DNA from: Euprymna scolopes
Taxonomy: Eukaryota
Assembly (NCBI GenBank): GCA_053919585.1
Contig: CM132807.1
DNA length: 64,000 nucleotides
Strand: one strand, 5' to 3'
In this document: in pieces, positions 12,428 to 40,090 of the stretch
How the letters are laid out: each line of letters begins with the position of its first letter
Position numbering within the stretch: position 1 is the first letter of the stretch
Made by a program: the position numbers and the translations under genes
The notes under the pieces: generated by a model
Told to the model about the DNA's origin: nothing
The model's input: only the letters and a program-made list of their open reading frames with translations
Database searches by the model: none

Positions 12428-12868
12428 TGTGGAAAAAATATAAGTTACTGGTTGCTCAGGAGAGAGGGGAGTATGTGCACTTACCTTGTTACTAACCAAA
12501 AGAGTTGTTGTTTCCTAGAAGCGTTATAAAGCTTTACCTTGGTCATGTGATGGTGATCACATGACCTTTTCAGACTTATAAAGGGAGGTAATAAAACTCT
12601 AGGGGGAGGTTACAATTTCAGTTGTATTTACAAATTTGCTGCTGAAGGTAACAATTTCAGTTGTATTCACCAATTTGCTGCTGATGGTTACAATTTCAGT
12701 GGTGTTTACTTTTGCTGATGATACTGATGATTACATTGATTACTTATTTTGTTAACTGACTGTCACGTCGCGGAAGAGGCAATTCTTTCGCAACTCTAAA
12801 GGTGAGTGTATCTTGCTTCCTTCTCGACTGAGCAGTCTTATTACTTCTTGGAAATTAAATTTTCCACA
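12428..12868 (+). repeat. 3' LTR of BEL/Pao family A
   Basis: Direct repeat of 6528-6970 with TG...CA ends. Confidence 0.97.
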
Positions 12869-12959
12869 GAATGTCTCCATTTAGTCTCTGAAACTAGTGG
12901 TATTCATAGGACTGATTGACTCCACTTTGTTCGAAAATAGGGATGGCTTGCTATTCATT

Positions 12960-15900
12960 CTCCTGGGATAATTGTATAGTGCTTTTTCCTGAGGTTGATC
13001 TCTATCGGGTCGGTTCTTTTCCTTTTCCTGGAGGACCGAAGTTGTCCGGTTACTTGTGTTACCACGTCGAACGGGTCAGATATGTTGCCCATTAATACTA
13101 CTTGTTCAACAGGCGGTTGTCTGTGGTCATCAGTTATACTTTTCCGACTTTCTGTTTAAATGTTTCTTCTGCGTAAATCTTCGATAATGTAGATCATCCG
13201 GCCGATCCTTTTCTGGACCTTTACTAGTTCCTATATTGCGCTTTTGTTTTTGTGTAGCTGGAAAAAATATATTTTCACCAGGTAAATAGCTCTTTTTAGG
13301 AACTATAGTATTTGACGGTTTCACCTGTTTTAGTAAAATTTTCTCGAAGATCAGCCTAATTTTCCCCGCGAACATTAACTCTACCGGCGACATCTTCGAT
13401 GGAGTCTTTTCATTGGGCGTAATTCGTTAAACTTGTATAAATTGTTGTAACGTTTTTTTACGGGGACGTTTCTGTAGCCTTATTCAGAGCTCTTTTCAAC
13501 TTGTCTACAACCCTCTCTGTCTGACCGTTCGATCGGGGATGATAGGTTAGCGCCGCCGATTTATCCGATTGAATGTTTTGTTTACTTTCCTTGACGAGAC
13601 TCTTCAGTCTTCCTTATTACGTCTTCCAAAGTTACTGGTAGTTCCTTGATCGTGTTATATCGTATTTGCGTATAGTAATTTTCACTTTATAGTGACGCTA
13701 TTACTGTGTCTTCTAGCGGTTCCCTTGATTTTGGGATTAATCGCGACAATCCGTCTGTGTGATTAACTTCATAGATGTAAGAAATTCCGTACCGAAATCG
13801 TAATTCAATAGAATTGCCTCCCATCTTTGCAGTCTGTTTGTTATGCAAGGATGTAGAACTCTTTTAGAGCTAAATATGGTTATAAACGGCTTGTGGTCAG
13901 TTTACGATTTAAACTTACGACCGATCGATGGAATTTTGTTACACCGAATATGGTCGCCAGTGCTTCTTTTTCGATTCTTATCGGCAGGAAGTAAAGATCT
14001 TGACGCATGGGCGATCTGCTTAGTGGGCTCATCAGGACTCTTGTGTACAATGCAAGTCTCTATCCCATAAGAACTTGCATCAGTTGCGATAATAATCTCT
14101 TGTTTTGGATTGAAATGAGTCAGGGATAAATCTGACGGTAATACATATTTTAATTTTTTTAAAGGCGGCTATGTTTTGTCCTTTTTATAATAATGCATTC
14201 AATGGTGCACGCAATTCATGAATGGTCTTAATGAAAATTGTATAATGGTTCGCGATCCCTAAAAAAAACTCTGCAATGTAGTTGCATTATGAGGTTCAGT
14301 CATGTCTTTTATGGTTGTGAACCTGTCTGGATCGGGTTTCCTCCCTTTCTTATATATGATCTGACCCAGGCATTTAATTCGTTCCAAAAACTAAAACCTG
14401 CATTTTCTTCTTTCAAGGCGAGGCCGTGTTCTTTTATTCTATCAAGCTTTTGAAATACATGATCTCTATGTTGTTCAACAATATAACTACGCAAAAGTAT
14501 ATCGTCCAGATAGTTCATTGCGAAATCTAAACCGTTTAGCAAAGTATCAATTACCTGTTGGAATATTGCAGGTGCAACTTTTATAAGAAATGCTAATCTA
14601 TTGAATTATAAAGTCCTTTGTGTGATGAGAGACACAAACGTTTCGAGCTATCTTTCTCTACTGGTATTTGTAGGTACGTCTCGCTTAAGTCTATTTTGGA
14701 AAAATATTTTTAGCCATTTAACTTAGCGAATATTTCATATTATGGATGGTAGCAGGTAGTGATGGTCCTTGAGCGCCGTATGTAATCCGATCGAAAATTT
14801 CGAGTATACCCTAATACCTTTAGATATTTTTTCACATATAGGGTGGGGGCTGACTAGTTAATAGAGGTAAACATCCCAGTGTTAAGTAGCCTTTTCGATT
14901 CTTTTTCAATTTTTCCATCGAAGCGAACAGAAGGCTCCGTGGCTTTTTGAATATTGGTTTTGCTTCGTCCAACAATTCGAATCTTGCTATAATTTTTGTG
15001 CAGCATCCAAGCTTTTCGGAGAAACCAATTGCGAAATATTTTTGAGATCCCCTTTGAGTTTGTCACGTCGGCCGTTAGCTTTTTGATTTTGTGACAAAAT
15101 CACTCATTGACGAGTCCAATAATTCAAATTCCTGAATCCAATAGGTCCCGGTTAATTTCGTTGCTTTGCTTAGAACGAACACGTTTAGATTTGCTGTCGT
15201 TCCTTTTAGTGACACATTAACACATAACTCACCCTCCCAATTTATTTTTTCACCAGTTACTATCTTGCGACTTTATTCGTCTTTGTCATCGGGGGATTTC
15301 CTCTTATCTTCCACGTGTGAAAATTTATATTTGAAAAATTCAACGCTAAATCGAGCTGCAATTTTACTTTTTTTTTTCTGATCCTGACCGTAACATATTT
15401 CCTATGTTCTCTGTTGGTGAAGGGTCCATATTTGCAGTCGTTACGTAGCTCTATTTTGTTACTTTTGCTCTCCAGAATGAGGTGCTGTGACCTGCTTGCT
15501 TAATTAGGACACATATTATTTTCCTTTGAAACTGACATGCATTTTACCCATGAGGTTCTTCCATTTGCTGCAAGAGGTCTTAGGATTTTTTTCTATTCTG
15601 ATAATTGTATGAAGGGTTTTTAGTCTCTTCGTTGGTAATTGCTGGCGGGCGGGTGTCCTTTATTTTAGAAAGTACATTTTTAATGTGATAAATACCTGTT
15701 CCTCTATGTTTCAGGAATTTGCTTCATTGTCACGAACCACTGACATTCTTCAGTCAGTTTCTGAAGCGTCAAATCAGGTTATAATTTCTATTTATATAGA
15801 TAGGCACGTCTTATATCGGTGTCTTTTGTGGCTATAAATCATTGTGTGAATATTAAACATTTGAAATTGTCCGCCGTTGATGACGAAAATTTTAAATCTT

Positions 15901-23529: not shown

Positions 23530-23788
23530 ATTTATAAGACCCGATATGTGGCTAATAAGTCTCAGGATGAGTTTCTTTCATATTGTATTCTTCTTTGTTG
23601 TGTTTTTTGCAGCATCTTATGTTGTCTATGCTGTGGTCCAGGAAGTTGTACTTAATTGCTATTGTGTGCTGTGCGGATTTTTCCCTGTTTGCTTGTTTGT
23701 GGTTTTTGAATCGTAGGCGGAACTCTCGGACTGTTTGGTCCACGTAGTTACCATTTTTGCACCTGGTGCAATATATTATGAAGAATAC
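23530..23788 (-). mobile_element. Penelope-like element, GIY-YIG endonuclease fragment (downstream half, split by BEL family B)
   Basis: VFFIIYCTRCKNGNYVDQTVREFRLRFKNHK is a degenerate GIY-YIG (IY..C..C...YVG.T...LR.RF..H). It joins in frame to 30345-30570 once the BEL insertion is removed. Confidence 0.75.
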
Positions 23789-24162
23789 TATGAGAATTTT
23801 CAATTGGTTGACTTGCCGACGGTAGGTCGGTGGGGAAGAAAGGAGTGCTGGTAGCTGTAACCAACAAGGCTAGTGGTCCGTTAATCAAAGAACCTGAGTG
23901 CCTATTCCTTACAAGTTAAATAGACATTTCAGTCACGCGTGAATCTCGTTGACTGAGAGTTGGAGTAGATAAAAGGGGTGGCCGCTATACTGTTTTTGTT
24001 GTAGTTGTTGCTGTCTTTTAGACAAATTACACTTCGACCATCGTTACCTATTTGTTACTTTTACGAGGAAAGACTAATTGTAAGCAACATCGACATTTCA
24101 TTGCAAGACTTAAACCGTCTTTTCTTCTCCCCCCCATACTTGTCGGTATGCTAATTCCGACA
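23789..24162 (+). repeat. 5' LTR of BEL/Pao family B
   Basis: Direct repeat of 29974-30344. It starts TATGAGAATT (the 3' copy starts TGTGAGAATT) and ends AATTCCGACA. Confidence 0.95.
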
Positions 24163-24164
24163 CA

Positions 24165-24176
24165 TTGCAACGAAAT
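24165..24176 (+). promoter_or_regulatory. Non-tRNA primer-binding site TTGCAACGAAAT, complementary to own LTR (putative self-priming)
   Basis: Lies 2 nt after the LTR end. It is the exact reverse complement of ATTTCGTTGCAA in the 3' LTR (30277-30288). The 5' LTR copy at 24095-24106 has one transition. Confidence 0.8.
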
Positions 24177-24375
24177 TACTTTATTTTATTTGGAGGAGGG
24201 TCTTTTTTCTTTATCCGCGTCAGCAACGCACGTGCTTTTATAAAACTGTAATGGGCGTCACCTTATGAAACAAAGTGTAACTGATTATTTTCCGGTTTAA
24301 AATACATACATTGGAACGAACTTGATTTCTCCTCTTTGGAGTTGGATTATTCTAGTGTACAACGGAATTCATAAC

Positions 24376-27300
24376 ATGGATGAGGCAGTCTCAATGGAGG
24401 ACCTGAAGCTGAAACAAGAACTTCTTGAAAGAAAAATACTAACTACACTGGAAGGATAAGTAAAGGAAGAGAAGAGTTATTAAGAAGTGATTTCTCTATT
24501 TAAGGTAGAAATAGAGGACTGGTTGGAAGAGCTTGAGGGCGTTTCCTTTGACATGGAGGGACACTTGGCTCCAAGAGGAGAAGCAGAAGCATTGGCTAGC
24601 TTAAGTCTAGCTTCATTTCGCTTTAAATATGGAGCGAGACAGCGTTTAAGTTCTCTGCGTAAAGCTGACCAGAGTGAACACCCAGCAGTCACCTCGATGG
24701 AAGATGTTGACTCAATCTCTAGTCATGGGAAACCGGTTACTCCAGAAAATGAGAGATCGCCATCCTACAAACCAACAACCCATTATTCATTTTCTGTGGA
24801 GCCATTTAAAATAAAGTTGAAGGGGCCACGCTTTGATGGGAAGGACTTCGACACCAACTAGAGGAGCTTCAAGGACTTCTTGACAAAGTTCGAAAATTGT
24901 GCCAGGTCCATAACATCACTCAGTGAAAGACTATATTTTTTGAGGTGCTCCTTGGAAGGTAGGCCCCTCCAACTTATAAATCATCTCTCCCCCTCTGAAG
25001 ATATTTACGGTATGGCCCTTAAGCAATTAAAGGACCAATATTTGGACGGGGAGGAGACAAGAGGTGAAATAATTAAGCAAATATTAGATTTCCAGTTAGA
25101 TAATCACAAAAAACTTTAAGGATTAAAACATTTTATAATAAAGACCCATGCGGATATGTGGGACCTAAGGGCCTCGTATAGTTGTGACTTATATGACGAT
25201 AAGTCAGCTGGAGCAATAATAATAGCACAAGTAAATGGAGAACTCTTACGAATCTCTGGGACTACCTACCCGACATTTTCCACACTATTGAAGGAAACAC
25301 CAAGAATTGTGAAACAGATGCTAGTTGCCAGACAGCCGACCAAGGTACTGATGCCCAAACCTAGGCTAAACCTAAGACAGAGGAGACGATCGAAACATCG
25401 TCTCTTAAAACTTTTAATACCGAATTAAGACCCGAGGAAAGATGCGACTTTTGCAAAAGCAATAAACATTTGTCTGAGGACTGTGGCAACTATACGACCC
25501 ATGAAACCAGGACACCCCGGTGTAGAGAGCTACGTCTTTGTTTTCGGTGCCTAAAGAGATCCCACTTGGGGAATATGTGACCATTAAGGACATCAAGAAA
25601 AAGTGTTGTCATATTGCAACTCTAAATGACACATAACTGTTATGTGCTCAACTGTTACGAGTAGTATGCAGGTTGATACCTGTCTACATACAAAAGACGA
25701 TAGTGCTTTCCTTTCTTCCATAATTGAAATAATAGTGCAAAGAGGAGATAAAATGTGAAGATAAACTGCCTGTTAGACACTGGTAGTCAAATAACTTATT
25801 TGGACTTTAATTTTAAAGAAGCTAAATTGTCTCTCCTTCCCAAAGGATAAAATAATGGAAGTAAATACCTTTTTAGGAACAACTCCATAAACCTTTAAGG
25901 AAATCTCGTTGGGATTGAATTTGATGCCAGGCAAAACAAATACTCTTCAGATTCTTGCGACCAAGTTGAACTTGTCTTACAGCCTTGAATGACTTACTCA
26001 GAATCTTGGAAATTTAAAGAATCACAGACTGGCTGCAAAGTTTAATGCAAAGGAGATTTGGTTACTATAGATGTATTACTAGGACTCGAGGCAATCCAGT
26101 ACCTAGAACCTTTCAAGATAGTCCCTTGCATGTATGGAGCAGCATTCGAGACCAAAAAAGGACTAATTCCCTTTGGAAACAGGTGTTCTTTTCTATATAA
26201 ACACCAGATTAAAAACCAAAAAAGAACAGATTAATTATGCAGAGGTGTTTGCGAAAACTCCACCACTTCCATCGCCCAGAATCAACTACGTGATTCACCC
26301 AGAGGAATCCTATCCAGACGCTTTAAAAAATTGGTTTGAAGAGAGTAGTGTCACACGAGGGTTGGAAAACATGTTCAACCTTGAATCTATTGGATAACCC
26401 ATTGACGAGAAATGCTCCACCTTGAATGAAGAGAAGGTTAAGCAGTTTAGAGATTCCGTCACATACAAAGATGGTCTCTATCATGTACAACTTCAGTGGT
26501 ATGAAGATACATTAAAATCGGTACCTTCTAATTACAATGCTGCTATTCGGGTGCTAGAAAATGTTAATAAGGATCTGGAGAAGAAAAACTTGTATAATCA
26601 GTATCTGCAAGTTTTCCAACAACAAGAAGACGAGGATATTATTGAAGAAATAATTGTGCCTCCTGAACAATTTAATATTTATATGTGGATTCCTCATAGG
26701 CCAGTGATAAAACTAACATATCAGAATACTACCAAGGTGAGGCCAGTATTTAATTATTCTTATAAACATAAGGGTCCAGTATCATTGAACGAAGCAGCAT
26801 ATCCTGGAGTGAACCTGATGAGCGACATGTTAAAATTGATGATCCGATTCCAAACAAACCGATATGTCTTGTTGGCTTATATTAGAAAAGCCTTCTGATG
26901 ATTCGTCTGGTATCGGAAACGGATCGTAATCGGTTTTGCTTTTTTCTGACGAAAGGTTAAAAATTGCATTGCTACAGGTAAAAAAACCCTTATTTTTGGC
27001 TTCAATGCAAGCCCTTTTATTGTAAATTATCCATTAAATTTCATGCAGAGAAATTCCTTTTGGATGAATGGTGGGAGGCGCTAAAATCCAGTGTTTATGT
27101 TTACAATCTAGTGAAACCTGCGAATAATGCAGAAAATCTATCTGATTTGTATACCTCTGCGAGAGAGCGTCTGTAGAAGGAAACTTCTAATTTACAGTCT
27201 TGCAATTCCAACTGTGTAACACTCCAAAGGAAAATGGAGGCTGATGGAACGTTATCATGATTCAACTCTGGTTGGGAAAAAGTGCTGGGGTATCAATATG

Positions 27301-29914
27301 ATCCTGTCCAAGATTCTATAAGAGTATCCCCCCCATCATGCGACTTGGAGGCATCAACTAAGAGGAAAATATTATCGGAGACCTCAAAGGTATTTGCTCC
27401 TTTGCCTCTGTATCTACCTGTGACAGTGCGAGGTCGTTTATTGATGAGATAAATATGGAGACAAAAACTGAATTGAGATGATATAGTTCCTCAAGATATG
27501 ATTTCAGTTTGGAGAACGTTGGCAAAAGATTTATCAGCGTTAGAATCTGTATCTTTCCCCAGGAGGGTTATAGATGAAGGAAAGGATACAACATTATTCT
27601 TTTTCTGTGATGCGTCTAAAGCCGCATATGGGTTTGCGGTATATGCCGTACAGGATGGAAATTCATTCTTGGTATTTGCCAAAGCGAAAATGGCTCCTTT
27701 GCAGGGAAAATCCCTCCCAACGTTGGAACTTCTAGCAGTATTTCTAGCACTGAAATGCTTCCCTTTTATAAAAGAGTCCCTAAAGGACATTCCTATAAAA
27801 GGCGTCTATGTAATCACAGATGCTCAGGTAGTGCTGTCTTGGATTTTGGCTGACTTCGTCAAAACGAAAAATGTATTTGTACGGAATAGATTGCAGGACA
27901 TAGGTCAAATGTCTGAGAAAGTTAAATCTGATTTTAACATAAAGATAAACTTTCAGTACACTTCAACAGATGACAACCCGGCCGAGTACATAACCAGAGG
28001 TTTGACTATCAAGAAATTTAAGGAAAAAGTTTTTTCTTTGTTATGAGGGACCGAAATGGATAAGGCAAGAAGAATCCTCCTAGTGCCATCGTGAGTAGGG
28101 TTGCCTTTCTAAAGTTCTAATGGAGCGGATTAGCGCTTCAGTAAATTATGCCGCAGAGAATGAAGTGGCTACATCAGAAGTCAAATTGGAAAAATTCTTC
28201 AGTTCAGGAAAGTTGATCAGTGTAACTTCATTGATATTCAAGTTCATCAACAAGTTAAAAAAGAGGGTGATTGATCCTGAGTTACAAGCAAATGCCTACC
28301 TGATCAAGACAATGCAAAAACAATCCTTTTCAAGGGAGTTGGGTTTTTTGTTGGACCCTGGAGGAAATTGCATGCCTAAACTGGTGAAGAATTTACATCT
28401 CTTTTTGGACTACAAGGTAATTATACGATCGATGGGAAGAATAGGAAAATCGGAATATCACTCATATGTGACCCAAATCCCATTTTATTGGTAAAAGAGC
28501 ATCATCTAACAAGTTTGATTATTCAAGAATATCACCAAAGAAGCCAACACTTAGGTTTGACCACAGCATTAAATGAAATACGATTGGCAGGTTACTGGCT
28601 ATCACAAGGCAGACAGGCTGTTAAAAATGTGGTTAGTACTTGTGTGAAATGTAAACGCTATAAGGCCGTTTCTTGTGCAATACCAAATTCGACCAACTTA
28701 CCAGCCCCTCGGGTGAATTTTGTCAGGCCCTGTCTACATACCGGTGTGGATTTTACCAAACATATCTATGTTAAAGGACAAGAGAACGACTATAAAATGT
28801 ACATTCTTCTATTTACATGTATGAGTATTAGGGCTGTACATTTGTAACTGGTTCAGGATATGACTGTGAAATCATTTATTCAAGAATTCATTAGGTTTCC
28901 GAACGTGAATGGAATCCCTACACACCTCTATTCGGATAATGCTCGCACATTTAACGCTGCTGCCAGAATCATTAACCGGGGCATGATAGCCGATTAATTC
29001 AATGAAAGATTAAGCCCATATGACTTAAAACATTGCACAATTTCACTGTTTTCACCTTGGTACGGTGGTAGTTGGGAGAGGTCCATCAAGGCCATAAAAT
29101 CTTGCTTGCATAAATCATTAGGAAGAGGTAAAGTAGACTATTTTGGTCTAATAACAATTTTGTCTGATGTGCATAGGGAAGTAAATAGCCACCCCCTGAC
29201 ATATAGGAGCTCTGATGATGCTAATCTGAATGTCTTAACCTCTAACTCTTTCATGAATGCGAACGTTGGTCAGGGAATAATAAAGCGGTTGGAAAACCAG
29301 GACCAGGAAACGATCGATCCTGTTAGTCGAAGTGACTTGATTCAAACCCTGCGTTCCCGGGAAGAAAGCCTGACTTAATTTAGAAAAGTTTGGAATAAGG
29401 ACCATATGTTGAGTCTCAGAGAAAGATCAAGGAGCTTGGCTGGTTGTTCTTTTGAAGATAAAGTAAAACCAGGGGATATAGTGTTCATAAAAACCCTCTG
29501 AAAACAAGGCCTTTGTGGTTCCTAGGTGAAGTTCTGCAGCTAATCCAAGGAAGTGATGAATTGGTGCGCATGGTGAAGGTGAGGAAAGGGAATGGAGCTA
29601 TAGACACATACTCTATCAAGCATCTCTTTTCCTGGAAATCACTCAACAGCCTGGAGAACCTGACCCGATAGGCACGAGTTTACAGAATATAAGCCAGGAC
29701 CCTCAACGGAGAGAGTATTATAATTTGGATCTGTCCTAGCTGTAACAGACCTGAAGGTACCAGACCTATGATAAACTGCGTTAGATGCAATGACTGGTTT
29801 CACTTCAGCTGTGTGGGTCTAACTGAAGCACCACCAGAAGATGGACAATGGTTCAGTCCGACTTGCAACATTCAAGGTGTTGTAACTGTTAGACCCAGTT
29901 TATCAGGAGTCTAA
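24376..29914 (+). pseudogene. gag-pol: BEL/Pao gag-pol polyprotein of family B with C-terminal PHD finger (many stops and frameshifts)
   Basis: ATG at 24376 sits in the same TAACATGGAT context as family A. Successive ORF fragments 24487-29378 match gag, PR, RT, RH and IN. The PHD frame stops at 29912-29914. Confidence 0.92.
29726..29866 (+). other. PHD finger (TAF3-like) at the integrase C-terminus, family B
   Basis: Manual translation: WICPSCNRPEGTRPMINCVRCNDWFHFSCVGLTEAPPEDGQWFSPTC (C4HC3, with the 7th Cys changed to Ser, AGT). It is not in the ORF track. Confidence 0.9.
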
Positions 29915-29973
29915 ACAAACTGTTTTATTCTCTTATAGATTTTTTTTCTTTTGTGGGGAATGTGTGGGGAATG

Positions 29974-30344
29974 TGTGAGAATTTTCAATTGGTTGACTTG
30001 CCGAGGGTAGGTCGGTGGAGAAGAAAGGAGTGCTGATAGATGTGACCAACAAGGCCGGTGGTCCGTTTATCAAAAACCTGAGTGCCCATTCCTTACAAGT
30101 TAAATAGACATTTCAGTCACGCGTGAAACTCGCTGACTGAGAGTTGGAGTAGATAAAAAGGGGTGGCCGCTCTACTGTTGTTGTAGTTGTTGCTGTCTTT
30201 TAGACAAATTACACTTCGACCATCGTTACCCATTTGTTACTTTTACAAGGGAAGACTGCTTGTAAGCAACATCGACATTTCGTTGCAAGACTTAAACCGT
30301 CTTTTCTTCTCCCCCCCCTACTCGTCGGTATGCTAATTCCGCCA
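29974..30344 (+). repeat. 3' LTR of BEL/Pao family B
   Basis: Direct repeat of 23789-24162, preceded by the GGGGAATG PPT. Confidence 0.95.
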
Positions 30345-30575
30345 ATACGCAGGTGAACGGGGAGAGTTTTACTTGAAGATTTGTTCTTGGAAGTGTGAAT
30401 TTGTCGTCAGTATTAATGTGTTTGCACACTTAACATATGGGTTATTTGTAGTAAAATACAATTGGTACGCGTGTGGATGATTTGTTGCGTTTGGATGTAA
30501 GTAGATTAACCCTGCTCAAATTTTCTGATTTCTGAATTAATGTGTTTATTATTTTAAAGGGGTAATTTCTATGAA
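30345..30575 (-). mobile_element. Penelope-like element fragment (RT C-terminus and linker, upstream half)
   Basis: The minus strand reads RNYPFKIINT... and C*VCKHINTDDKFTLPRTNLQVKLSPFTCV, which continues into FFIIYCTRC at 23788. Confidence 0.7.
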
Positions 30576-30971
30576 GAAATTTTCGCTTTTCGTACTCGAT
30601 GGGGCATGACCAGTTTATAAATATTTAAGATTTTGTTTATTTATTTCAGTTATTCAAGAGCTTAAGGATTTAATATTTGTAAGGGCATATATATATAATT
30701 CCTCCACATCCTTCTAGCTGTCCAGGGATTGATATGCTTAAAGTTATATATATTTACGATTATATACATGCAACTTTGTATGTCTCTGAGTTCGTTCCTT
30801 GTAGACCCCGAAAGTGCTGAATAGATGTTCTCTAAAAATTACAGAATATTAGTACATATTTCTGGGAGTGATCTTAATTAAGTTTTGTTTTAGACTACCC
30901 TAAAAAATTACCGTGACCCGATAATTGAACCTGTTATTGTAATTAATTCATAATCGGTAAAGTTATTTTCC

Positions 30972-32564
30972 ATGTCGCTTAGCAACAATGGCAGACCAAC
31001 GAGCGGTGAAAATTTTACTGTTGGTATATCTGTACGTGATGTTGCCAAGCTAATCAAAAACCTTGATTCCAGTAAAGCAACTGGCCCTGATGGTATTCCA
31101 ATTATAGTACTCAAAAAACTTCAACCTGAACTAGCGCCCATACTTACAAAACTGTTTAAACGTTGTCTTAAGGAGAATAGTTTCCCATCTCCCTGGAAAA
31201 TCTCATCAGTATGCCCTGTATTTAAGAATTCAGGTGATCGCTCATCCCCCTCTCAGTACAGGCCAATAAGTCTCCTGTGCGTCATGAGTAAGTTGCTAGA
31301 ATCTGTATTAAATACAGAAGTAATCAAACATCTCAACAAAAATAACCTTCTTAGTGACACTCAATATGGTTTCCGTTCTGCTAGATCTACAGCAGATGTC
31401 CTTACAGTTATATCGCATAGGATTAGCAAATCTCTCGACGGTGGCAATCTTTCTAGGGCAATTGCTCTTGACATATCTAAAGCCTTTGATAGGGTATGGC
31501 ATAAAGGTTTACTTCATAAGATCGCTAGCTATGGTATAGCTGGAAAAGTCTTCTCAATTATTAAATCATTTCTTTCTGATAGATTCATAAGAGTAGTAGT
31601 TGAGGGGCAAAAATCAGAAGCTCACAATATTAATGCCGGTGTCCCTCAGGGATCCATCCTGGGCCCAACTCTTTTCCTGATCTACATTAATGATCTTCCA
31701 AATCATATCCTTACATCATTTGTAGACATTTATGCTGACGACACTACCATTTATGGTACCACATCTAAGACAGTAAACGAGCAAGTTCTCTCCAATTCTC
31801 TCTCCTCTGATCTTGAGCACGTAGTACAATGGGGAAAGGAGTGGCTGGTTACTTTTAATGCATCTAAAACCAAGCTTCTCTCTTTACATCATCAACATTC
31901 TAATCCACATTTGTCATCAATTGAAATGAATGGCTCTCGTCTTCAGGAGGCCTCAAGTTTTGACAAGCTTCTGGGCTTGACCATTACTCCTGATCTTAAA
32001 TGGAACACGTATATCAAATCTGTTGCCAAGGCCGCTGGAAAAATGGTGGGATCTTTCTATCGATCCAGTAAATATCTCACTGCTGATGCTATTCTCTATC
32101 TATATAAGAGCCAGGTACGTCCAAGGATGGAATACTGTTGCCACATCTGGGCAGGAGCTGCTAGTAAGAACTTGTCCTGCCTTGATAGAGTTCAAAATAG
32201 ACTTCGTAGCCTCGTAGGAGATGTCCTTTTCTCCTCCTTGCAACCTCTATCTCACAGAAGAGATGTTGCGAGTTTGTCTCTGATGTATCGTTATTTTCAT
32301 GGAAAGTGTTCAACTGAGCTTCAATCTATGGTCCCCCCTCGCCAAACTTTCACAAGAAACACTCGTCTAGCTGTAAACACTATCAATAATTTCCCCCACT
32401 CTTTATCTGTGCCTAAACCTAAACGTAGATTCCATGAACAAAGCTTCTTTCTTAGAACTGCACGCCTGTGGAATTGTCTTCCGTTTTCCTGCTTTCCGGC
32501 TGACTACAATATGGTTTTGTTCAAGTCTAAAGTAAATAAGTTCTTGATGAGCCGTTCAATATAA
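30972..32564 (+). CDS. Non-LTR retrotransposon reverse transcriptase (CR1/L2-group LINE ORF2, 5'-truncated, uninterrupted)
   Basis: 530-aa ORF containing KATGPDGIP, YRPISLL, QYGFR, ALDISKAFDRVWH, GVPQGSILGP, YADD and FNASKT. There is no endonuclease domain. The first ~17 codons probably derive from flanking DNA. Confidence 0.95.
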   Translation: MSLSNNGRPTSGENFTVGISVRDVAKLIKNLDSSKATGPDGIPIIVLKKLQPELAPILTKLFKRCLKENSFPSPWKISSVCPVFKNSGDRSSPSQYRPISLLCVMSKLLESVLNTEVIKHLNKNNLLSDTQYGFRSARSTADVLTVISHRISKSLDGGNLSRAIALDISKAFDRVWHKGLLHKIASYGIAGKVFSIIKSFLSDRFIRVVVEGQKSEAHNINAGVPQGSILGPTLFLIYINDLPNHILTSFVDIYADDTTIYGTTSKTVNEQVLSNSLSSDLEHVVQWGKEWLVTFNASKTKLLSLHHQHSNPHLSSIEMNGSRLQEASSFDKLLGLTITPDLKWNTYIKSVAKAAGKMVGSFYRSSKYLTADAILYLYKSQVRPRMEYCCHIWAGAASKNLSCLDRVQNRLRSLVGDVLFSSLQPLSHRRDVASLSLMYRYFHGKCSTELQSMVPPRQTFTRNTRLAVNTINNFPHSLSVPKPKRRFHEQSFFLRTARLWNCLPFSCFPADYNMVLFKSKVNKFLMSRSI

Positions 32565-32710
32565 GTTATTAAATTTACCAAATTTTCATTACTAATGATT
32601 ACTATATTGACCAACTTCTACTGTACACTCTTTAACCCTTATCCTTGAGTGGCCTCTGGGCCTTGATAATGTGGTGATGCCTTTGTAAAAAAAAAAAAAA
32701 AAAAAAAAAA
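31023..32710 (+). mobile_element. 5'-truncated LINE with 3' UTR and poly(A) tail
   Basis: RT ORF, about 120-nt 3' UTR and an A24 tail at 32687-32710. The 5' boundary is approximate. Confidence 0.9.
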
Positions 32711-39109: not shown

Positions 39110-40090
39110 GTGAGTTCTCTCAGATTCTCTCTCTTCTAATCTTGTGCACGTTGTACAATGTGAAAAGGGGTTGTATATATTTGCTTCCGCACTGAACAAA
39201 TAAGGCACAAGGGCGTTTTTGTACAATGTGAAAAGAGGTGGTTTGTTACAGTTAATGCATCTAAAACCAAGCTTTTATCTTTACACCATCAACGCTCTGA
39301 TTCCCATCTGACATCAATTGAAATGAATGGCTCTCGTCTTGGGGAGGCCTCATGTTTTAACAATCATCTGTGCTGGACCTTTACTCTTGATCTGAAATGG
39401 AAAATGTGCATCAAATATGTTGCCAAAGCCGCTGGAAAAATGGTCGGATTCTTTTATCGATCCAGTAGATATCTCACTGCTGATGCAATTCTCTATCTAA
39501 AGGAGAGCCAAATTCGTCCAAGGATGGAGTACTGTTGCCAGATCAGGGACGGAGCAGCTAGAATGATTTTATCCTGCCTTGACAGAATTCAAAATAGACT
39601 TCGCAGCCTCATAAATGATGTCCTTTTTTTTTCGCTGCAGCCTCTTTCTCACAGAAGAGATATTACGAGTTTGTCGCTGTTTTATCGTTATCTTTGTGGC
39701 AAGTGCTCGACTTAGCTTCGATTTATGGTATCCCTCGCCAAACTTTCACAAGAAACACACGTCTAGCTGAAAACACTATCAATAATTTATCCCACTCTTT
39801 ATCTGTGCCTAAACATAAACGTCGACTCCATGAAAAAAACTTCTTTCTTAGAACTGCGCGCCTGTGTAAATGTCTTCCGCTTTCCATGCTTTCAAACTGA
39901 CTACAATATGGTTTTCTTCAAGTCCAACGTAAACTATACTTGATAAGCCGTTCCCCTTAAGTTAACAAATTTACTGAATTTCCATTACTGACAATTACTA
40001 TATTGCCCAGTAAACTACTGGGCGCTCTTTAACTCTTATTCACGAGTGAGACCAGTTCTTTGATAAGTGGTGATGTCTATGTTAAAAAAA
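39110..40090 (+). mobile_element. Older, decayed copy of the same LINE family (3' part)
   Basis: Colinear with about 31785-32690 (MNGSRL.EAS, RPRMEYCC, LQPLSHRRD, shared 3' UTR, short A tail), with frameshifts. Confidence 0.92.

Follow-up and report, generated by a model that had tools for sequence, protein, structure and literature searches.

One of the questions raised by this locus is why a retrotransposon would end its coding region with a PHD finger, and why two divergent families would carry this domain at the same position with the same zinc ligand missing. The window that we analyzed is a stretch of 64,000 nucleotides from Euprymna scolopes (assembly GCA_053919585.1, contig CM132807.1). 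The DNA is eukaryotic, rich in AT and in microsatellites, and interrupted by N gaps; two full-length elements, termed here A and B, both lie on its plus strand. The original prediction, made from the letters alone, was that B holds a second, hidden PHD finger at the position where A has its own, and our analysis bears this out: in both elements the domain follows the end of the integrase (DUF5641) and stands just before the 3′ LTR. The two families are indeed divergent, with 24 of the 47 PHD residues identical and no DNA match between them (E 1e-10, at least 100 bases), and both copies lack the Cys at ligand 7, B having Ser there and A having Trp.

The PHD finger of element B lies at 29726..29866 on the plus strand, and the 47 residues translated from it match exactly those reported earlier. 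It is a TAF3-type finger with seven of the eight zinc ligands, Ser standing at ligand 7, and with Trp, Glu, Met and Trp at the cage positions. Against the Pfam PHD profile (PF00628) it reaches 39.4 bits (cut-off 24; E 6.2e-10) over 47/47 profile positions. As a control for chance, the PHD of a relative was compared with the window: the two best frames reach 69.1 and 61.5 bits, the next one 7.6 bits, and the maximum over 30 triplet-shuffled windows is 12.6 bits. A 73-codon frame between two stops (29693-29914) contains the domain, and the earliest ATG, GTG or TTG of this frame falls inside the domain itself (29768). Since no start codon stands ahead of the domain in its frame, it is missing from the ORF track, just as had been stated.

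In a sequence search of the PDB with the B finger, TAF3 is the best of the 43 entries matched (E 1.1e-17; next family 2e-7), with 58% identity over 48 residues and no gap. The finger of A also finds TAF3 as its best match, more weakly (E 2.8e-12), so that B is the nearer of the two to TAF3, in agreement with the earlier claim. The structure predicted for the B finger from a 13-row alignment has a pLDDT of about 90 across the domain, and the top Foldseek matches of this model are TAF3 PHD structures (PDB 5wxh, 2k16 and 5c13; rmsd 0.9-1.5 Å over 48-51 residues). Judged by the model, which bears on the fold and not on zinc binding, the domain of element B has the fold of a PHD finger. The full Cys4-His-Cys3 set is absent from this copy and, with only 7/8 zinc ligands kept, the B finger is a damaged member of the PHD family.

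The damage is not limited to the finger. Element B is a decayed BEL/Pao LTR retrotransposon on the plus strand, at about 23790-30344. The aligned part of its 5′ LTR covers 23791..24162, the true start being possibly 2 bases earlier, and is identical at 347 of 368 bases to the 3′ LTR (29976..30344). A purine tract precedes the 3′ LTR and falls within an 11-base tandem duplication (29952-29977) that spans the junction of the two. Between the LTRs, all on the plus strand, lie a decayed gag (weak DUF1759) and protease region at 24487..26219, and the reverse transcriptase with RNase H at 26230..28482 (Pfam Peptidase_A17 at 27477-27821), which holds many stops and frame changes and in which the catalytic motif of the reverse transcriptase is damaged. 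These are followed by the integrase at 28476..29495, with its H2C2 zinc-binding part (28500-28667), its catalytic core and stops at 28845, 28995 and 29376, and by the end of the integrase C-terminal domain at 29462..29626, where DUF5641 is matched at 29507-29602 with an E of 3.4e-4, below the curated cut-off. The linker from the integrase end to the PHD (29627..29725) is broken: the homologous reading exits and then re-enters the PHD frame, which has stops at 29669 and 29690. After the finger comes a C-terminal tail of 15 residues and a stop (29867..29914); intact relatives have a tail equally long, with the word RPSL common to both, and also a basic run that B lacks. In comparison with an unbroken relative, B has about 19 stops, a count inflated by a short out-of-frame stretch, and at least 7 frame changes. 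The candidate target-site duplication has only 4 bases, ATAC (23787-23790 / 30345-30348). At 26167-26394 a Chromo_PTM match that stays below the cut-off (E 0.0017) was taken as chance.

Element A occupies 6525..12868 on the plus strand, with LTRs at 6525-6970 and 12425-12868 that are identical at 428 of 444 bases. Its PHD finger (12116..12256) and the integrase end stand in a single open frame, and the basic C-terminal tail (12259..12303) is read in another frame, the frame change coming directly after the PHD. In the blocks that align with an unbroken relative, A shows 4 stops and changes frame 5 times. Both copies in the window are dead. In each, the order is DUF1759, Peptidase_A17, Integrase_H2C2 and DUF5641 (gag-PR-RT-RH-IN), a Pao-type Pfam set whose four profiles all pass the cut-off in A and in the unbroken relative P0002; DUF1759 and DUF5641 stay below it in B. 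P0002 has a single gag-pol frame, and A and B are colinear with it but broken. This Pfam set, and the presence of a PHD and not a chromodomain after the integrase, led us to reject chromoviruses as an assignment for A and B.

BEL/Pao elements (family Belpaoviridae) have TG...CA ends and a target-site duplication of usually 5 bases. In A and B the CA is present and the 5′ ends are ragged, and the candidate duplication of A has only 4 bases, GAAT (about 6517-6520 / 12869-12872). Directly after the 5′ LTRs (6971-6995; 24163-24187) we read TATTGCG and CATTGCA, where primer-binding sites usually start with TGG, which may point to a non-standard primer; a tRNA gene search across the window found none. 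The basic tail of the A sub-clade has an RGRP likeness to an AT-hook; this candidate was rejected, as no Pfam AT_hook was matched at E up to 1 in 7 proteins. In the available text of PMC6238403, BEL/Pao elements are described as not known from plants, fungi or mammals.

The window holds other repeats as well. A decayed LTR element fragment on the minus strand (13000-14400), Gypsy-like by eye (RT_RNaseH_2, E 3e-11), adjoins the 3′ LTR of A. A LINE-type reverse transcriptase frame of 536 codons lies at 30954-32694 (RVT_1, E 3e-37), with a second, partial copy at 39164-40090 that is 83% identical. Inverted repeats at 49803-50216 / 55244-55629 and 56102-56548 (76% over 418 bases; 91% over 149 bases) are possibly DNA-transposon ends.

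How widespread is the PHD among related elements? A search with the RT-RNase H part of A in proteins of 831-2370 residues gave 965 matches, of which the best 120 were examined. The top two are P0002 (1778 aa) and P0003 (1283 aa), each an unbroken polyprotein with a complete PHD at its end, and the domain is absent from the other 118. Among the best 120 of 135 matches to the integrase and PHD of P0002, 4 have the PHD. An exhaustive search with the last frame of A (144 residues) added 14 further proteins with an integrase end followed by a PHD among the best 150 of 560 matches; a word-index homolog search of longer proteins with the same frame gave no match among 488 candidates. In total, at least 20 database relatives carry a PHD after the integrase end, two of them unbroken polyproteins, with linkers of 27-54 residues. 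P0342 and P0374, which are host-like and had come in through a loose motif or match start, were left out of these counts. The zinc ligands are complete in P0002, P0003, P0123, P0129, P0180, P0243, P0247 and P0269. The database relatives found include no intact element from the family of B.

Among the matches of the RT-RNase H and integrase-PHD searches that reach the integrase end, together with P0259 (164 in all), the PHD is present in 7 and absent from 157, and hence we regard the PHD as a trait of a clade and not of BEL/Pao. Absence from most relatives was to speak against an ancestral domain; this is what we see at the superfamily level, with the PHD in 7/164, but not within the sub-clade. 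The PHD-less relatives mostly have an acidic linker and then a basic RP(K/R)R motif at the C-terminus, and in the PHD clade the finger stands between linker and basic tail, as though inserted into the PHD-less layout. Two relatives, P0243 and P0259, have a tandem pair of PHDs after the integrase end, and some host TAF3-like matches also have 2-3 PHDs. P0238, a gene model of the cuttlefish Acanthosepion pharaonis, was counted as PHD-less but ends abruptly inside a PHD; it is placed within the PHD clade at 97/99, which makes this cuttlefish the only named host there. Other named matches near the clade are crustacean (Palaemon, Meganyctiphanes and Trinorchestia).

Another question that is raised from the conservation of the domain is what it may do. 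In TAF3, according to the available part of PMC12238850, the cage for H3K4me3 is made of D877, M882, W868 and W891, and D889 or E905 holds H3R2; the portion of PMC8246079 at hand gives binding over 100-fold weaker for M882A. We mapped these residue numbers onto the elements by means of the PDB alignment and the same portion of PMC12238850. The equivalents of W868, M882 and W891 are kept in 19/20, 18/19 and 19/20 relatives, respectively, and in both A and B. The D877-equivalent is Gln in 11 of the 20 relatives, Asp in 4 and another residue in 5, and it is Glu in B; being mostly Gln, it may give the element domains an affinity or methyl-state preference that differs from that of TAF3. The D889-equivalent is Asp in 16/20 relatives and Asn in B, and the residue after Cys3, Asp in all 20 relatives, is Val in B; these departures weigh against a TAF3-like reader. 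In the predicted model of the intact P0123 (pTM 0.37), DUF5641 forms a beta domain, which a linker of low confidence joins to a PHD with pLDDT of about 90; this is consistent with separate domains, the PHD being carried on a tether.

A mechanism that fits these data is that one BEL/Pao lineage captured a TAF3-type PHD from a host gene as the last domain of Gag-Pol, where it would hang on the integrase through a flexible linker of 27-54 residues. Following protease cleavage the PHD would remain on the integrase and travel with it into the nucleus, bind H3K4me3 (or me2) tails and tether the integration complex to promoters or other active chromatin, thereby biasing insertion to such sites; in the A sub-clade, the short basic tail might aid DNA contact or nuclear import. 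At the level of sequence, the architecture, its restriction to one clade, the complete ligands of the intact relatives and the kept cage residues are established, and we lean slightly towards the view that the captured domain is an H3K4me3 reader which would tether the integrase to active chromatin. The broader proposal, that in several invertebrate genomes a BEL/Pao clade uses a TAF3 reader to steer its integration to active promoters and that some of its families have expanded this reader to tandem copies, is more tentative, and we would put it forward with some doubt.

The surroundings of A and B count against targeting. The DNA around both is rich in repeats, and a scan of 39 frames turned up no host gene domain; fresh promoter insertions would look different, though old survivors are a filtered sample. 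The position of the window copies in gene-poor repeat DNA would suit a PHD that is selected and reads H3K4me3 but does another job, whether a general hold on chromatin, protection or stimulation of the element's own LTR promoter, or competition with host readers. The conserved domain and cage also fit H3K4me3 reading without site choice, and PHDs occur as well on element proteins other than integrases, as in CR1-like non-LTR elements (Kapitonov and Jurka 2003, cited in the available text of PMC6673714). However, the PHD is fused at the very end of the integrase, where the chromodomains of chromoviruses direct integration (PMC6673714, available text); we judge a role other than integration targeting to be unlikely, if still the strongest of the alternatives.

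The capture itself may have happened once or several times. The RT-RNase H tree, built from A, B and 25 near matches (27 rows), unites A and B with P0002 and P0003 in a single clade at SH-aLRT 99, B being deepest, and a FastTree of the same region with 121 rows and an imperfect reading of B returns the same clade (0.989). In the integrase tree (38 rows, PHD left out) support for the A sub-clade is strong (97/99), that for B joining it is weak (46/64), and P0180 and P0259 take no settled place; a constraint that unites all 10 PHD-bearing rows lowers the lnL by 0.46 (AU p 0.46). The PHD-only tree (54 rows, 51 columns) groups 12 of the 13 element PHDs at 83/88, with one host intruder and with P0180 apart, and a single element clade is neither rejected nor shown by it (AU p 0.25). 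Based on these trees, a single capture probably accounts for A and B. The donor lineage cannot be named from a PHD-only tree of 51 columns. As for the gene, a Bromo_TP histone fold together with a PHD, which is the TAF3 architecture, was found in 14 of 28 host-like matches in a scan that left out short and 850-1000-residue single-PHD matches, and this layout points to a TAF3 gene as the likely donor. None of the reference elements for the named BEL/Pao clades (BEL, Pao, Tas, Suzu, Sinbad/Sailor, Dan and Flow) is among the listed matches.

If related BEL/Pao families took up TAF3-like PHDs more than once, with B or P0180, say, doing so separately, this would be compatible with the chromatin-targeting explanation as well. 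The finger of B scores higher with a host PHD (177) than with the best element PHD (165), and that of P0180 does so too (166 compared with 145) and is placed apart from the element group by the PHD tree. Such fusions also seem to recur elsewhere: the ESM Atlas holds an 80-member cluster of integrase and PHD without DUF5641 (score 0.82, a lead only, as are all ESM Atlas matches here, which scored below 0.9), and Ginger1-9_HM likewise has a C-terminal PHD (PMC2836005, available portion). The proteins of the 80-member cluster have the layout rve, Integrase_H2C2 and PHD, their commonest phylum is Mollusca, and they probably represent a separate integrase-PHD fusion outside BEL/Pao. Against repeated capture stand the RT-RNase H clade of A, B, P0002 and P0003 at SH-aLRT 99, the alignment of the A and B fingers over 47 codons without gaps, the equal tail length with the word RPSL, and the fact that a single clade is rejected in neither the integrase nor the PHD tree. 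We consider repeated capture improbable, and a single capture for A and B stays our preferred reading.

The missing seventh ligand had been attributed either to coincidental decay or to a relaxed ligand. Of the 20 relatives, 11 are in register at this site, and ligand 7 is Cys in 10 of them and Phe in one (P0248); a second Phe at this column belongs to an out-of-register row. In the database copies ligand 7 is lost in 1/11 and the other ligands in 8/131 (p 0.53), which means that these copies show no excess of loss at ligand 7. At RT-RNase H columns that are invariant among 119 relatives, A has changed in 6/73 and B in 8/68 (5/52 and 8/49 at a stricter threshold), a loss of 8-16% of otherwise invariant residues. 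Decay at this rate would be expected to remove 0.7-0.8 ligands in A and 0.9-1.3 in B, and one was lost in each. The chance that A and B lose the same ligand is 7.5-12% with the RT-RNase H rates and only about 1-6% with the lower rates that LTR divergence would imply, a figure that counts against shared decay. The most likely explanation of the shared missing Cys7 is thus coincidental decay after insertion, in each copy separately; of the two options, it is the one favoured by Cys7 in 10/11 in-register relatives and by a loss rate at ligand 7 like that at the other ligands. The sister clade and TAF3 both suggest that the ancestral ligand 7 of the B family was Cys.

For the seventh ligand to be relaxed, the second zinc site would have to tolerate, or to have lost, Cys7, so that Ser and Trp would be working variants. 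The same ligand is affected in A, B and P0248, and adding A and B to the database copies gives 3/13 against 8/145 for the other ligands (Fisher p 0.049), though A and B are the very copies that prompted this test. With no intact member of B's own family found, a site relaxed in the B family alone is conceivable. However, both unbroken polyproteins are among the 10/11 in-register relatives that keep Cys7, the expected decay losses agree with one in each copy, no spare Cys or His adjoins the ligand 7 site in B, and P0248, the other copy without Cys7, departs at further conserved places as a decayed copy would. A relaxed ligand is therefore not supported and seems to us quite improbable, leaving coincidental decay as the explanation that we adopt.

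Over the 47 gapless codons of the A and B fingers, 11 of the 24 identical residues are written with different codons, and pS is 0.84 (saturated) with a pN of 0.33. Saturated synonymous change at such a pN indicates that the PHD was kept by protein-level selection while the two families diverged, and this codon comparison establishes purifying selection on the domain between A and B. That the PHD is a neutral passenger, a functionless piece of host TAF3 mRNA captured in the 3′ region, may be suggested by the damaged B finger, severed from its integrase frame, but is largely refuted and highly improbable given the in-frame fusion in unbroken relatives, the protein kept while synonymous sites were saturated, and the tandem duplication in P0243 and P0259. 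The original prediction of an ancestral, selected domain rather than a one-off capture holds for the sub-clade, with its 20 relatives, its SH-aLRT of 99 and its pS of 0.84 against a pN of 0.33, and fails for BEL/Pao overall.

Compared with known systems, A and B resemble BEL/Pao elements in their two LTRs, the single gag-pol frame of their intact relatives and the order gag, protease, RT, RNase H and integrase, and differ from them in the extra PHD that follows DUF5641 in their clade. Some insect BEL/Pao polyproteins carry N-terminal PHDs, and REM1, an algal LTR element attributed to Perez-Alegre 2005, is said to have a PHD. The literature searched does not describe a PHD at the C-terminus of a BEL/Pao integrase; Repbase, GyDB and subscription journals lie outside this search, and a prior note is quite possible. 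In the main text of the BEL/Pao surveys PMC3118150, PMC8556966 and PMC6238403, as far as it is available, the term "PHD" is absent. PHDs are widespread on mobile elements (PMC6673714, available text); Ginger1-9_HM is similar in that its integrase-type transposase carries a C-terminal PHD (PMC2836005, available portion), but it and the Mutator and CR1-like carriers of a PHD on an element protein are DNA transposons or non-LTR elements. With the TAF3 PHD itself the element domains share the 58% gapless identity (in B), the rmsd of 0.9-1.5 Å and the Trp/Met/Trp cage, and they differ from TAF3 in the absence of a histone-fold domain, in a D877-equivalent that is mostly Gln in the clade, and in the loss of ligand 7 in A and B.

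The chromatin readers of LTR retrotransposons (chromodomain, MBD) have been described as a means of hiding in silent chromatin. A TAF3-type reader would point the opposite way, to promoters, and insertions there are better expressed as well as more mutagenic. The PHD would be the first candidate targeting device for BEL/Pao, as far as the literature searched reaches, and the claim is directly testable: the domain has only about 55 residues, intact natural versions exist, binding by the TAF3 PHD is well measured, and the PHD-less sister families offer a natural control for the mapping of insertion sites. A parallel in lifestyle is CopiaMBD of arthropods, which is also a lineage-restricted LTR clade with a captured host chromatin reader and a proposed steering of integration; it differs in belonging to the Copia superfamily and in reading methylated DNA, with binding shown experimentally there and predicted here (PMC6673714, available text). 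Chromoviruses (Ty3/Gypsy) likewise have a histone reader of host type at the integrase C-terminus, and their chromodomains direct integration to heterochromatin (PMC6673714, available text). They belong to another superfamily and read a heterochromatin mark, whereas the PHD of the A and B clade is predicted to read H3K4me3 of active chromatin; if this is true, an animal LTR retrotransposon would encode its own active-mark reader, as the mirror image of the chromoviruses.
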